Of a stretch of DNA of 64,000 nt, positions 12,812 through 53,383 are shown piece after piece (the stretch's first letter is position 1; each line of letters opens with the position of its first letter). This DNA is from Octopus vulgaris. Lineage: Eukaryota. Where the stretch lies: NCBI GenBank assembly GCA_951406725.2, contig OX597821.1, positions 55,242,001-55,306,000 of the forward strand. The letters run 5' to 3'. A program made the position numbers and the translations under genes. Under the pieces are notes generated by a model. The model was given only the letters and a program-made list of their open reading frames with translations, did no database searches and was not told where the DNA came from.

Positions 12812-13000
12812 AGTTCAAATTTACATAAAAACAAAAAACGAAGATAGGTGTAGGAACAACGCTCGGGAAAAATGGAAAAGTCTTTTACGTTTCGAACCTA
12901 AGCTCTTCGACAGTAAGGAATAAGAGGCAGAAATGGAGAGGGGACGAAAAAATAGAGAGAAAAAAACAGTGATGAGTTCAGCGGTCCAATATGGTGGGAT
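12812..13000 (-). mobile_element. Short HHR-bearing non-autonomous unit, family A, copy 1 (HHR 12883-12916)
   Basis: Minus: CTGTCGA-A-GAGC-ttag-GTTC-GAAA-CG-TA-aaa. Flanked by (TG)n and homologous to the copies at 19845 and 48361. Confidence 0.75.
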
Positions 13001-13039
13001 GTGTGTGTGCGTGTGTGTGCGTGCGCGCGCGTGTTATAT

Positions 13040-13514
13040 AAAATGAGAAAAAAGCCAAGGCCGTGAGGAATTTATAAAACATTTATAAAGAGAAAGGTAG
13101 TCTTACAGCTGTTTCTGGGATATTAGGGATATCCCTTCGCCAGAGACGGTATGAGAGGGAAATAGTAGAGTTCAATATAAAGAGTTATTTTGGAAAAGAA
13201 TGGATATAGGAAGTATAAAGGGAAATAAGAAAATAAAAATAAAGATAAAAATATACGTAGGATGTTACAGTTGCAGTTCCGTTATCCAAGGAAAGTGCTG
13301 TGTAGTATGGATAGAAATGCTTCTTGTCCATGGTATGTAGATTCCAAAATACCTCCTTATATTGAAGTCTACTATTTCCCTCTAGTTAACTCTCTCATAC
13401 CCTCTCTAATGAAGGGATATACCCTAATATCCCAGAAATAGCTGTAAGATTACCTTTCTCTTTATAAATTTCCTATAAATTCCACACTACCTTGGCTTTG
13501 CTGTCTCATTTTAT
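13040..13514. repeat. Fold-back element with ~140 bp inverted arms, each carrying an HHR (13101-13146 minus; 13403-13449 plus)
   Basis: Arms are ~13040-13180 and ~13358-13514. Each reads outward tct-CT(GGC/AAT)GA-A-GGGATA..TATCCC-A-GAAA-(C/T)AGCTG-TA-aga. Confidence 0.85.
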
Positions 13515-13989
13515 TCCAGCCCACACAAGATAAAGCGACTCTTCACTCGTATTATTATCAAACCGAGAGTCTAACTACGGTCCTCACATACCACTTACAT
13601 AGCCTTACCTGCCATCTTGGGCCTTCCTGGATACCAATATCTCTCATATATGTATTTATATACACATATATTTTTACAAACCATGTACCTTTTTTAATAT
13701 ACTTGTGCGTATGTATACCTATACAAGTACAATATGTGCACGCGCACACACACACACACACACGCACGGACATACACACAATTCTAAGCTTTTGATGCTA
13801 CTTTACTCTGCCACTGTTTGTGGCCATGCTTGGAGAAATTTTGTGTGAGTGTGTGTGAGTGTGTATTGCGTTTGTGTGTGTATTTTCGTCTTTTACTAGT
13901 TTCAGTTCGAGAACGGCGGCCATGTTTGAACACCCTTAGCTTTGCTACACTTTCACTACTTGAAACCTCTTATGTCAAGTGAAATTTGG

Positions 13990-14270
13990 TGAATGATGGA
14001 GTTAGATGAGGCTACCTTCATGTGTGTTTCCTGCTGTGAGGTAGGCTCGTCAGGAACCTTTGACGGGAAGAGATCCAGTTTTGTTTCGAATCATATAGGT
14101 CACTCAGGTGATTTGGGAGCATACTGAAGATTTGTGGGCTCTTGAAATCCAAACTGTTACAGTATCTGCTCTCGTGTACTGATAGTGATGCTGGGATCTT
14201 TGCGACTATGCAATGGCACCGCGTACTGCTGTTTGCATAATTCCTTCCAGGATTTACTACTACCTCCATT
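13990..14270 (-). mobile_element. LINE (CR1/L2-group) ORF2 C-terminal remnant
   Basis: Minus: NSLDFKSPQIFSMLPNHLSDL, then frameshifted FETKLDLFPSKVPDEP. Confidence 0.55.
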
Positions 14271-15412
14271 TTTATATCTGTAGTGGTAAAACATTCTACA
14301 GGTGTGCTGGCTTACATGTGCCATAAGTGTTTGGGGAAAACGCTATTCAATTGTTCATTCAGTGTTTCACTTATCTTGATTTGGTTTCTCGAGAGGACAC
14401 CATCTTTCTGGGGGAGTAGCCCTATCCCGCAACGCACTACCATTTTAAAAGACAACCACAATAAATGATGGTGGTTTAGTGTATCCTAACATAATGCTGT
14501 GTTCGTGGTTTGAATTCTTATGCCTATACATCTGCTTGGTAACGTTTGACTTAGAATAAAAACCCACAATATAATGACATAATTTTCTCTGGTTGCAGAC
14601 CGTGTGTGTGTTTCATGTGAGTATGTGTGGTGTGCACGTGTGTGTATATGGTTGTGTATATGAGAGAGAGAGGGAGAGACAAAGTAATTATTTCCATGTA
14701 GGTAGGCATAGACATATGGACTTGCTCAAACAAAGTCCACATACACCCGTATTTTGAAACAGTTTCAAAATTACTTAGTAGTTTAGTAACTTCTAAGTAG
14801 TTTATAACTGCAAGTTCTAAAATAATGCAATTATTCGTTACTAACATATATTTATCAATCTATATTCCTCAAGATAACTTGTACTGTGAATTTTATGTGT
14901 TCTTCACATGACATATATCTGATGTCCAGTCTTCCAGTTGGCTTTATTGCTGATCACATGCTGAGTGGCTCTGTAAATTCGAGAAATCAAATTATACTGA
15001 CTAGTTTCATGTGAATGAGAGAGACCGGCAGATAGACGAACGTTGAAACACAACGTATAAGGTGTCAAACTGTATCCCTGTTTGTTGAAAAGTTCTTTGG
15101 ATCCTATAAACATATGATATGATTTCAAACTATACGTCTACCTTGTTCACTTGTTCAGAGCATATCACTTCAGAATCATCTAAATAGAGCAATGGTATAT
15201 ATGTTCTGTAATGTTTAGACAGTTAGTTTTGAACTATAAAATTAGGAGAGTGAAGCTGTGAGAAATAATAATACAGCCAATTTTAACTACATAGTTTTAA
15301 CTATGAGAATCTGACCCCCAAAACTCCGGTTAACCTTATTGTTCTGTAAATCAATTATCATTCCCCCTCTAAAATAAAAAGACCTTTCTGTACTGGTTAG
15401 TTTTATGTTTAT

Positions 15413-50973: not shown

Positions 50974-51053
50974 TTCTACACATGTTTCGAAGGCCACAAA
51001 TTTCCAAATTCTGTTTAGATAAGGGTACCATATTGCGGCTTTCTCTTCAGGAA
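50974..51053 (-). ncRNA. Type I hammerhead ribozyme in pLTR, intact core
   Basis: ttc-CTGAAGA-gaaagccgcaa...ttgtggccttc-GAAA-CATGT-GTA-gaa. Confidence 0.82.
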
Positions 51054-51638
51054 AAAAAACAGGAATTCCGTTGACAGGACAAAACAAAACAGAGGCACAG
51101 CAATTCGAACGAAGATGCTCCTTAGGAGCCCATGGCTGAACTGTCTATCAATGTACGTTGAAATCGGGGATTTGGTGCGTTGAAGATATCTACAGGTCAG
51201 GCGGCGGTCAGATCTAGTCGTTGGAAGCAAGGGGTGTGGGGATGCTCTGTGTGACCAACACTAATGTTCTGAAAAATTTAAGAATACTGGGTGTATTTTT
51301 GGGGGCGAGCCAAAAGCCTCCTATAAGCAAGTATGTGTGTGATGGCCCATGTGTGCGTGGTCGTGTGCTGGCGAGGGGGGGCTACAAAATGACAACTGCT
51401 GAAAAAACCAGTCAAGCGGCTGAAAGAATTTTTTGTGTTCGTGTGTTCGACTCGGCCTGCTTGTCAAAAATTTAACATCGTCAAAGAATCCTAAGGGCAT
51501 ATATAGTTCCACGCCTAATGGGAGTAATTTCCCCTTGCAAGGGTTATTCATAGATTTCTTAAAAAGCTTTTCCAAAAAATTATTTCCGAAGATTATATTA
51601 ATTTTAGTAGGGTAACAAGGTGTTAATTGTCTTAGGTA

Positions 51639-53012
51639 TCATTTATATGTAAGATATGTATGACGCCTCCAATGGGGACATCGAAAAGCCGACTGTAAAA
51701 GACTATTTACCAACCGGTCTCTGGCGAACAATATGTGGAAAAGCTCAGAGATACAAAGATTGCACCGCCTTCTGCCCCTATCAAATGGGAGGGTCACCGA
51801 CAAAATCGACCATTCCAGCCTAAAAGCTGAATTCGCGTTCTTCAAACGCCATATAAGCTTGCTAAGTCCCGTAGCTTGGTATTTATTCACGTCGCGAAAA
51901 GTTGCGAAATGGTTCGAAATTCTCAAGGACAATTTTGACGATGAGGCCCCGACATACGAGTAGACATCTGAATCCGTGTAAATCTTGCATTGGTAAATGG
52001 CATTTCTGATCTTGGAGTTACTCGACAAGAACCTTATTCTATTGGGATTAGCTTCTGATATTAAAACTGCGTTACTGTTACTATATTGATTGTGAGAACT
52101 GCGGCCGCTTACTACTTTATATTCCTCATTATTAATTAACGGACCAACCCCTGTGTCTTCCCTATCACTGAGAGCGCTGTAATTGCTAGTATCCGTGGAC
52201 CTGCTATTCCCGGAAACGATGCTAAAATTGCTATTAGGACTCTCTACATTAATGACCCGAACAGCGCTCACCTGACTATTATCATTACTAACGCTAATGA
52301 CATCCCCATTACTTCTATCGCTAAACCTATTATTTAATCCCTGGCTGGTACTGAGGTTATCAGTCACTGTACTGGCGCTTTTATCATTATTACTGTTATT
52401 ATTCCTACTGCGCGTTAATCTGGGATCAGACGGAGCTGCGTCCCCGGACAAAGGTGGTAGGGTCTTACTAAGCAGCCTATTATTATGGGAGGCGATTATC
52501 TGGGAAAGGTTTTTTGTGTTGGAGAAAGCTATTCTAACTTTATGTGAATTAACCGTGGAGTAATATTTGGAATTTCTGGGGAAGTTACTGGCAATGGCCT
52601 GTCGAAACAGGAGGAGAAGGTTAGTTCTAATCTGCTTCCCAAAGGGGATTACAAACCAGATATGCTTATTCCTATTTTTATGATGGGTCGGGAGGCCAGC
52701 TCTGCCATTAGGGTAGGTGATTCTAGGATGAATAAAGGGTTTTGGTTTAGTGTGACCTCCCCCGGACCGAAAATTATCTATGTTCCCTAAATTAAATCCG
52801 GAGGTACCTGCTCCAACACTCCCCCCGCTCCCGTCACTCCTTAAATTATTTATGTTATTATAGACGGCCCTATCCTGATGACCGAATGGAGGCATCGGAA
52901 GGGCTGGATCAATATATACTACCTTCTGCTTATAACCGGCTTTGGATAGTGCGGCGTTATAAAATTCCGCTTTCTGCATAAAAATGTCGACACTAGCGGA
53001 CAAGTTAGACAA
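51639..53012 (-). CDS. PLE ORF C-terminal part: RT thumb, expanded low-complexity linker and GIY-YIG endonuclease (457 open codons, no natural start)
   Basis: HIWFVIPF...NFP...AFSNTKNL..IIASHN, AIYQC...YVGAS..RISNH, LSKLIW, CNLCISE, CPH. Confidence 0.8.
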   Translation of the reverse strand: MSNLSASVDIFMQKAEFYNAALSKAGYKQKVVYIDPALPMPPFGHQDRAVYNNINNLRSDGSGGSVGAGTSGFNLGNIDNFRSGGGHTKPKPFIHPRITYPNGRAGLPTHHKNRNKHIWFVIPFGKQIRTNLLLLFRQAIASNFPRNSKYYSTVNSHKVRIAFSNTKNLSQIIASHNNRLLSKTLPPLSGDAAPSDPRLTRSRNNNSNNDKSASTVTDNLSTSQGLNNRFSDRSNGDVISVSNDNSQVSAVRVINVESPNSNFSIVSGNSRSTDTSNYSALSDREDTGVGPLINNEEYKVVSGRSSHNQYSNSNAVLISEANPNRIRFLSSNSKIRNAIYQCKIYTDSDVYSYVGASSSKLSLRISNHFATFRDVNKYQATGLSKLIWRLKNANSAFRLEWSILSVTLPFDRGRRRCNLCISELFHILFARDRLVNSLLQSAFRCPHWRRHTYLTYK

Positions 53013-53220
53013 TCTTAGAGAGATGTTTTAACCAAATTGTCTGTTACGGTTTTGGCATGATTGGAGAAGACACTGACATACTTCAAATTAGTGGAAGGTA
53101 TTCTGTACAATCTTCGTTCAACTCCATTTATTCCATTTACTAATAATATATATACACACACACACACACATATATATATATATATATATATATATATATA
53201 TATATATATATATATATATA

Positions 53221-53383
53221 GTTAACCCAAACAAGAAAGCACAAAAAACACAACAACGCGAGGACGTGGAACAAATATAGAATTATTGGACGCTCAGGAA
53301 AGAAGGAAAGAAGGAGGGTTTAACATTTCGAGCGGAGCTCTTCGTCGGAAACATAGAAGGAAAGATCCAGAGAAGGGAAGACA
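53221..53383 (-). mobile_element. Short HHR-bearing unit, family B, copy 3 (HHR 53318-53352)
   Basis: Minus: gttt-CCGACGA-A-GAGC-tcc-GCTC-GAAA-TG-TT-aaac. The 3' end abuts (TA)n. Confidence 0.8.

Follow-up and report, generated by a model that had tools for sequence, protein, structure and literature searches.

Short hammerhead-bearing repeats of Octopus vulgaris as probable solo and 5'-truncated pLTRs of Penelope-like elements

The window analysed here is a 64,000-nt stretch of Octopus vulgaris DNA (GCA_951406725.2, OX597821.1:55,242,001-55,306,000, forward strand). Six related units of about 200 bases lie at the places where the first-pass annotation had put them, as confirmed by their pairwise identities (75-81% within subfamily B, 64-67% within subfamily A and 49-57% between A and B) and by an nhmmer search, in which a profile built from the same six units, and thus circular for them, gave six matches and no others in the window. 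The hammerhead is encoded on the minus strand in five copies and on the plus strand in copy 49484. Read as pLTRs of Penelope-like elements (PLEs), the A units are two solo copies of an old A-type subfamily, at 12812..12990 (minus strand, A6U core within 12878-12920, 3' end at the (TG)n tract 12779..12811) and at 19808..20019 (copy 19845; minus strand, decayed core within 19900-19942, without a 3' microsatellite), and a solo copy at 48361..48545 (minus strand, A6U core within 48452-48494, 3' end at the (TA)n tract 48317..48360). Subfamily B1 is represented by a solo copy at 31779..31980 (minus strand, canonical minimal hammerhead core within 31878-31919, 3' end at the (AT)n tract 31741..31777) and by a 5'-truncated solo copy at 49484..49665 (plus strand, U4A core within 49526-49567, 3' end at the (TA)n tract 49666..49870), and subfamily B2 by a 5'-truncated solo copy at 53221..53383 (minus strand, U4C core within 53314-53355, 3' end at the (AT)n tract 53170..53220). 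The motif tattag..acgctcag, said to be shared by the units, is exact in 48361 and 31779 and degenerate in the other four; as written, it is the antisense strand relative to the hammerhead.

A minimal hammerhead had been assigned to all six units. Its fold is supported, but the core is canonical only in 31779. In an alignment of 13 sequences 94% of the helix cells pair, compared with 20-49% in slid controls, and one pair in helix I covaries between A and B (G-C/C-G). None of 500 shuffles reached the observed pairing, although the relatedness of the sequences inflates this test. A family-independent hammerhead descriptor matched four of the six units and nothing else in the window, with 0 matches in 100 shuffles. 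The substitutions in the other five cores are U4A in 49484, U4C in 53221 and A6U in 48361, 12812 and 19845, the last of which also carries GAAG instead of GAAA. Young, intact families likewise have an A6U or a U4C core, which weakens the view that the units are processed by the ribozyme; the hammerhead probably cleaves only weakly, and its cleavage may be dispensable. Of 168 Rfam matches in the window, the 150 that were listed included no hammerhead model and consisted of microsatellite-driven miRNA and snoRNA matches only; at three parent loci no Rfam match, hammerhead models included, reached the gathering score.

Five of the six units end 3' at a microsatellite, as had been noted, the exception being 19845. 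Genome-wide abundance was estimated from a systematic 1.4-Mb sample (140 of 160 planned 10-kb stretches, about 0.05% of the genome), which contained 53 unit matches. The very high copy number anticipated from the window is thereby borne out at approximately 100,000 per genome, and the sampled density of 38 per Mb (26-51), versus 94 per Mb in the window, identifies the latter as richer than the genome average. The 3' end is fixed across copies, which are not permuted; 31 of 34 sampled copies with a complete 3' end adjoin a microsatellite, compared with 19% of random positions, in support of microsatellite targeting.

The 5' ends of the short copies are not smoothly distributed. Of 50 sampled copies, 24 have their 5' end in a zone of about 35 nt that lies between 89 and 122 nt upstream of the cleavage site; the remaining 26 are shorter, with staggered truncation points inside the unit. 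None extends past this boundary, two low-complexity over-extensions having been discounted by eye. Constant-hazard models in which both over-extensions were counted as long disfavour smooth truncation (P 3e-13 to 1e-6). The boundary is hard in both A and B, and short copies outnumber long ones by at least 16:1 (0/50 long; upper 95% bound 5.8%). A discrete 5' boundary, proposed from four window copies that appeared to start at a common motif, is therefore real; CG(T/C)T does occur near their start, at a range of about 55-85 nt rather than 65-85 nt, and 49484 and 53221 are 5'-truncated. Only one of the 50 sampled copies ends within 10 nt of the cleavage site on either side, and 23 solos adjoin a microsatellite at their 5' end as well. 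We infer that the boundary corresponds to the 5' end of the template or to a strong RT stop. Inspection by eye for an Inr, a DPE or a splice site at the boundary gave readings that did not agree between A and B, and these were dropped. In the literature searched, mostly open-access, no earlier account was found of short copies with such a sharp 5' boundary, and the available text of Arkhipova et al. (2013, PMC3846280) does not mention "strong-stop".

The same units flank full-length PLEs of 4.5-6.2 kb as direct repeats. In the A-type copies L211, L212, L213 and L215, stop-to-stop frames of 1116-1200 aa lie between two units that are 4.5 kb apart and whose direct repeats are 98.4-99.8% identical; in the B-type copies L226 and L227 and the tandem array L217/L218 the spacing is about 6.2 kb. 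The unit is thus found at both ends of an ORF with an RT and, at its C terminus, a GIY-YIG domain: RVT_1 of L213 passes the Pfam cut-off (31.8 vs 29.6 bits), and GIY-YIG is weak (E 0.007, below the cut-off) with its motif visible. The RT-EN linker reads CX4CxxC in L213, L227 and L217. A CX2-5CxxC linker typifies Neptune, and the linker of Nematis is also Zn-finger-like (PMC8557442); assigned by linker motif, the parents likely belong to the Neptune clade. The upstream repeats of full copies measure 1269, 1072, 638, 1209, 245 and 798 nt, and that of L214/L216 about 70-80 nt, a variability that matches the partial tandems of PLEs. They start elsewhere than at the 5' boundary, so that simple run-off cannot be the whole mechanism.

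When loci were picked by upstream sequence, the unit lay directly downstream in 20/20 A and 19/20 B cases. Long copies extend from the unit across the 3' UTR and reach the ORF, and this continuity with a full PLE ORF, by which the first-pass annotation itself proposed to recognise ordinary truncated pLTRs, speaks against an independent unit. The PLE-type nature of the minimal hammerhead is supported. The sample also contained inverted pairs typical of PLEs (L065, L070, L160, L254). In L160 a unit is joined to 90 nt of the 5' end of the B body (91%), and in L239 about 400 nt of a B ORF (80%) are joined to a unit at the boundary; such variable partial-tandem and inverted arrangements are expected of an EN+ PLE.

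Among the window copies, 48361 matches L279 at 93.5% identity over 185 nt and L220 at 92.4%, and each of these has GIY-YIG or RT and GIY-YIG coding sequence upstream of the unit. Copies 31779 (L223 at 85.6% over 104 nt, L222 at 74.9% over 167 nt) and 49484 (L222 at 81.5% over 119 nt, L223 at 89% over 83 nt) likewise have ORF-linked relatives of the same subfamily. The link is weaker for 53221, which is 93.4% identical to a long copy, L275, with a weak coding match (E 6e-5), and 87% identical to the pLTRs of L226/L227. For 12812 and 19845 no direct parent was found among the ORF-linked copies, the best of which reach 71-77% over about 100 nt and 75-76% over about 105 nt, respectively. The GIY-YIG fragments in the window itself (5254-5829, 25912-26379, 51639-53027), to which mobilisation of the units had been ascribed, were rejected as parents: they belong to other PLE families, a tblastn search of the parents against the window gave no match, and their hammerhead-like 3' ends differ from the six units. 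Mobilisation by a PLE RT/GIY-YIG protein would still apply, with other PLEs as its source.

Based on these observations, the six units are very probably solo or 5'-truncated pLTRs of full-length PLEs, likely Neptune and likely inserted at (TA)n by the RT and GIY-YIG endonuclease of the parent, and not a separate non-autonomous retrozyme-like family. For annotators, such units are PLE ends, to be kept apart from retrozymes and SINEs. As a class the element is known; Octopus adds families that are young, intact and high in copy number, together with about 1e5 sharply bounded short copies, which make PLE priming, partial-tandem formation and hammerhead use, described as open questions (PMC8557442, PMC4209133), testable by end mapping.

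The only feature that pLTR identity leaves unexplained is the sharp left boundary, rarely passed by short copies. In a plausible sequence of events, the parent GIY-YIG endonuclease would nick a (TA)n tract, and the tract would anneal to a short UA-rich junction that the element RNA carries after the pLTR. Most reverse transcription would halt within about 200-230 nt, at or before the boundary, which is likely either a strong RT stop or the RNA 5' end (the start from an internal promoter). The minority of events that cross it, through strand transfer or because the template is longer or circular, would yield the long and partial-tandem copies. More specifically, and tentatively, the solos of about 200 nt could be integrated "strong-stop" products, primed where the UA junction follows the upstream pLTR, then extended to the RNA 5' end; the pile-up would then map the PLE transcription start, long copies would need a retrovirus-like strand transfer, and the hammerhead core would have drifted in active families. 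A boundary pile-up would also be expected from a self-propagating SINE-like unit.

It is conceivable, if somewhat doubtful, that part of the solos form such a SINE-like non-autonomous lineage, transcribed from an internal promoter at the boundary and re-mobilised in trans by the PLE protein, which is compatible with their origin as pLTRs. The hard boundary in A and B and the excess of short copies fit this possibility, as do two columns of family A that separate solo from long copies past Bonferroni, although different queries were used to select the solo and the long set, and the alleles are common to both. In D. virilis Penelope, the upstream repeat is described as containing the transcription start, which precedes a 75-nt intron by 46 nt (PMC2377424); the end of this intron maps to helix I (PMC4209133), and non-autonomous PLEs with pLTRs are reported from Chlamydomonas (PMC8557442). 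Contigs from four of 22 sequencing runs, all of them assembled into contigs, were compared with L213:2900-4400, and the three runs presumed to be RNA gave no intron-like joint or back-joint; as contigs do not reveal starts, ends or levels, this result speaks neither for nor against such transcripts. Arguing against a separate lineage are the B tree, in which solo and long copies are intermingled and no column passes Bonferroni, the long members in each younger subfamily checked, and the staggered truncations of 26/50 copies inside the unit.

Excision of monomers of about 200 nt by the hammerhead, followed by circularisation and reverse transcription as in a non-LTR retrozyme, is very unlikely. 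Metazoan non-LTR retrozymes are also short and non-coding, with a type I hammerhead and kinship to PLE pLTRs; a pLTR origin and dispersed monomers have been proposed for them (bioRxiv 10.64898/2026.07.22.740005), and one A-(TA)n-A tandem (L045) occurred among 30 selected A hits. However, retrozymes are defined as tandem repeats, and as described they form arrays, whose ribozymes are often canonical and efficient and which are associated with circular RNAs (PMC7229834; bioRxiv 10.64898/2026.07.22.740005), whereas the Octopus units are dispersed, polarised, mostly core-variant and continuous with the PLE ORFs that they flank. No homologous head-to-tail tandem was present among the 53 sampled hits, a 0.05% sample that rare large arrays would escape. 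The copies have their 3' end in common without permutation, and no pile-up of ends is seen at the cleavage site. Formation of solos after insertion, by deletion or by recombination between the two pLTRs of a full-length copy, as put forward for part of the Adineta vaga solo pLTRs (PMC3846280), is also very unlikely, since the upstream repeats are variable and mostly 600-1300 nt long, so that recombination would leave long solos rather than solos of about 200 nt, and 23/50 solos adjoin a microsatellite at the 5' end.

The pLTR reading finds its closest counterpart in the pLTRs of EN+ PLEs of the Neptune clade (Cervera and de la Pena 2014, PMC4209133; Craig et al. 2021, PMC8557442). Common to both, as described there, are a minimal type I hammerhead (G10.1-C11.1, palindromic 15.2-16.2, and one base left unpaired between positions 9 and 10.1), an RT and C-terminal GIY-YIG ORF with a CX2-5CxxC linker, partial tandems, inverted copies, a microsatellite bias and mostly single, dispersed motifs. 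Single minimal hammerheads were described in thousands per genome as probably truncated PLEs (PMC4209133), compared with about 1e5 copies in Octopus; in contrast to the EN+ PLE pLTRs as described, the A6U and U4C cores are fixed in young Octopus subfamilies and short copies have a sharp 5' boundary. In Penelope of Adineta vaga (Arkhipova et al. 2013, PMC3846280), pLTRs of 193-218 bp, solo pLTRs, inverted arrangements and AT-rich targets were reported as well, but those solos are low in copy number and ascribed to recombination or deletion, whereas in Octopus the solos are the dominant product and retain an insertion-like 3' end.

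The six units of about 200 nt are read here as solo or 5'-truncated terminal repeats (pLTRs) of Penelope-like elements (PLEs). All were recovered where the first-pass annotation had placed them, and its two groups were borne out: the B units (31779, 49484, 53221) are 75-81% identical to one another and the A units (12812, 19845, 48361) 64-67%, with 49-57% identity between A and B. Five units carry the hammerhead-like motif on the minus strand, whereas 49484 carries it on the plus strand. In the predicted fold, helices I and II have four pairs each and helix III is a single pair around a palindromic loop; across 13 natural unit sequences the pairing holds in 94% of cells vs. 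20-49% in slid controls, and one covariation, G-C/C-G, occurs between A and B units. A family-independent hammerhead descriptor matched four of the six units and nothing else in the window, with 0 matches in 100 shuffles. Microsatellite 3' ends, also claimed previously, are real: five of the six units adjoin a dinucleotide tract, as do 31 of the 34 sampled copies whose 3' end is complete, compared with 19% of random positions.

A few of the 60 best genome matches to 31779 and 48361, the starting set, extended upstream. Searches with upstream extensions returned at least 40 scored places each for A and B; in the 20 + 20 loci taken, the unit lay directly downstream of the extension in 20/20 A and 19/20 B loci, and several continue into GIY-YIG and RT coding sequence. 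Protein searches gave many equal-scoring genome copies with open frames >1000 aa; 20 chosen loci were studied. Full A-type elements (unit, ORF, unit, with the units 4.5 kb apart) are present at L211 (contig C2), L212 (C5), L213 (C1) and L215 (C2); their ORFs span 1116-1200 aa from stop to stop and their flanking direct repeats are 98.4-99.8% identical. They represent a young, apparently intact family. The spacing is about 6.2 kb in the B-type elements L226 and L227 and in L217/L218 (G000:C10:97.80-97.82 Mb), a head-to-tail array of at least three B-type PLEs of about 6.17 kb that are 99.7% identical over 3 kb. In L213, Pfam RVT_1 scored above cut-off and a weak GIY-YIG match lay near the C-terminus. 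The linker motif, CX4CxxC, agrees with the Neptune clade as described in the accessible part of PMC8557442, the likely placement by this motif. In full-length copies the upstream repeat is of variable length, between about 70 and 1269 nt, and a short TA-rich junction resembling the genomic 3' junction connects it to the element body.

The intact elements belong to sister subfamilies that are younger than the window copies, which link to more decayed long relatives of their own: 48361 shares 93.5% identity with L279 and 92.4% with L220, 53221 shares 93.4% with L275 and 87% with L226/L227, and 31779 and 49484 share 75-89% with L222/L223. For 12812 and 19845 the best identity is no more than 71-77% over about 100 nt, and their parents are therefore presumptive.

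Only 31779 among the window units has a canonical catalytic core. The A type is marked by A6U and the B2 type (53221) by U4C; among the 117 descriptor matches from all loci examined, which are not independent and include places counted twice, position 6 is U in 70 and position 4 is C in 23. A6U and U4C are subfamily states rather than decay. As far as the text of PMC3088659 is available, A6C has low hammerhead activity, U4C has reduced activity in vitro and A6U is not mentioned. The young 4.5 kb family has the A6U core and the cleavage triplet GUU despite its apparent intactness.

In 140 evenly spaced 10-kb stretches of the assembly (2.8 Gb, 227 contigs), nhmmer yielded 53 merged matches, including one interrupted copy counted twice and one locus with a local duplicate, and 0 with the reversed decoy. 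The resulting density of 38 per Mb (bootstrap 26-51) corresponds to about 106,000 units per genome (74,000-142,000). The very high copy number predicted from the window therefore holds, but the window, at 94 per Mb, lies above the sampled average. For 50 of the 53 matches (two at stretch edges and one unaligned half-copy excluded), 5' ends were placed relative to the cleavage site, with the zero point 1 nt to the 3' side of the probable scissile bond. Staggered ends from +24 to -78 were found in 26 copies and ends between -89 and -122 in 22; two aligned to -162 and -195, by eye low-complexity over-extensions with true ends near -95 to -99. A constant truncation hazard predicts that 5-11 of the 24 stop in the next 40 nt, and the probability of 22 or more doing so is 3e-13 to 1e-6 under such models. 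For old copies the mapped 5' end may fall short of the true one, yet 23/50 copies adjoin a microsatellite on the 5' side. A single copy has its end 10 nt or less from the cleavage site. From this distribution, long copies make up under about 6% of the population. The discrete 5' boundary noted earlier is thus genuine, but it is situated inside a PLE.

The element class is already known. According to the accessible parts of the literature, animal genomes each contain thousands of minimal hammerheads that occur singly, have low activity as dimers and are probably truncated PLEs (PMC4209133). Also reported are pLTRs of about 200 bp and solo pLTRs (PMC3846280), and Penelope-like families with recent activity in an octopus, ribozymes going unmentioned in the main text as available (PMC13282606); the available part of PMC12602865 holds nothing further on element structure. 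For the sharp 5' boundary and for an A6U core in apparently active PLEs, no earlier description was found in the largely openly accessible literature that was searched.

Structure, ORF linkage, target bias and end distribution of the units are direct observations. From PLE biology, integration would proceed by target-primed reverse transcription at a nicked (TA)n, with priming on the UA-rich junction. The 5' boundary may be where the template itself ends or a site of strong stopping. Since the upstream repeats of full-length copies exceed the unit in length and are seamless, the boundary must be crossed in some events, perhaps through strand transfer or because the template is circular. A tentative reading, which we consider rather doubtful, holds that solos are integrated products of RT reaching the RNA 5' end, such that the pile-up maps the PLE transcription start, long copies need strand transfer and the hammerhead core has drifted. 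In the D. virilis Penelope, according to the accessible parts of PMC2377424 and PMC4209133, transcription starts inside the upstream repeat, some 120 nt ahead of helix I, a position comparable but not identical to the 55-85 nt here.

Partial self-propagation of A solo units, a SINE-like alternative, is possible but less likely than not. In its favor, two alignment columns distinguish 28 solo from 19 long A units past Bonferroni, with alleles shared between the sets, and the solo/long label is clustered on the tree; however, the two sets were picked with different queries, so that ascertainment can account for the difference, and among B units 28 solo and 17 long copies are intermingled, with no column passing Bonferroni. 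L160, a unit with the 5' end of the PLE body, and L239 (1529-2125), in which a unit is joined directly to B-family ORF sequence exactly at the 5' boundary, tie short copies to full-element templates; L229 (4237-6686) is another chimera of unit and B-family ORF sequence. Retrozymes are defined as tandem repeats (available parts of PMC7229834 and bioRxiv 10.64898/2026.07.22.740005) and according to the latter derive from pLTRs. Of the tandem copies that the first-pass annotation suggested looking for, none occurred as a homologous head-to-tail tandem in the genome sample, the six near pairs being four inverted pairs, one B-A neighbor and one interrupted copy. Its proposal that the window's own GIY-YIG PLEs mobilize the units is not supported, since the three fragments have no tblastn match to the identified parents and two of them carry different hammerhead-like ends of their own.

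The PLE at 50800-53027 (minus), 5'-truncated and of another family, has a frame of 462 aa in which an insert rich in asparagine and serine precedes GIY-YIG. Its 3' UTR, about 800 nt long, contains a hammerhead-like motif with a long helix II near 50985-51050 and finishes in (TA)n. Beside unit 53221, at 53095-53149, 55 nt from the 3' end of this PLE recur in inverted orientation. The GIY-YIG fragments at 25912-26660 and 5254-5829 (both plus) are 27-36% identical to the 51639 protein, and the former has a hammerhead-like motif near 26580-26625 followed by a (TA)n tract. At locus L024, a second short hammerhead-like repeat, partly duplicated, precedes the unit by about 500-650 nt and lies downstream of a GIY-YIG fragment resembling that at 25912.

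A repeat family of about 220 bp, 65-84% identical, forms short tandem arrays and dispersed copies at 23841-24970, 33145-33544, 55435-56400 and 7770-7975; a generic hammerhead scan of it gave no match. Judging from sequence motifs, we take 40304-41452 (minus) to be a LINE-type RT fragment of 382 aa, and 17300-18004 and 29-385 (both plus) to be Tc1/mariner-like transposase fragments.
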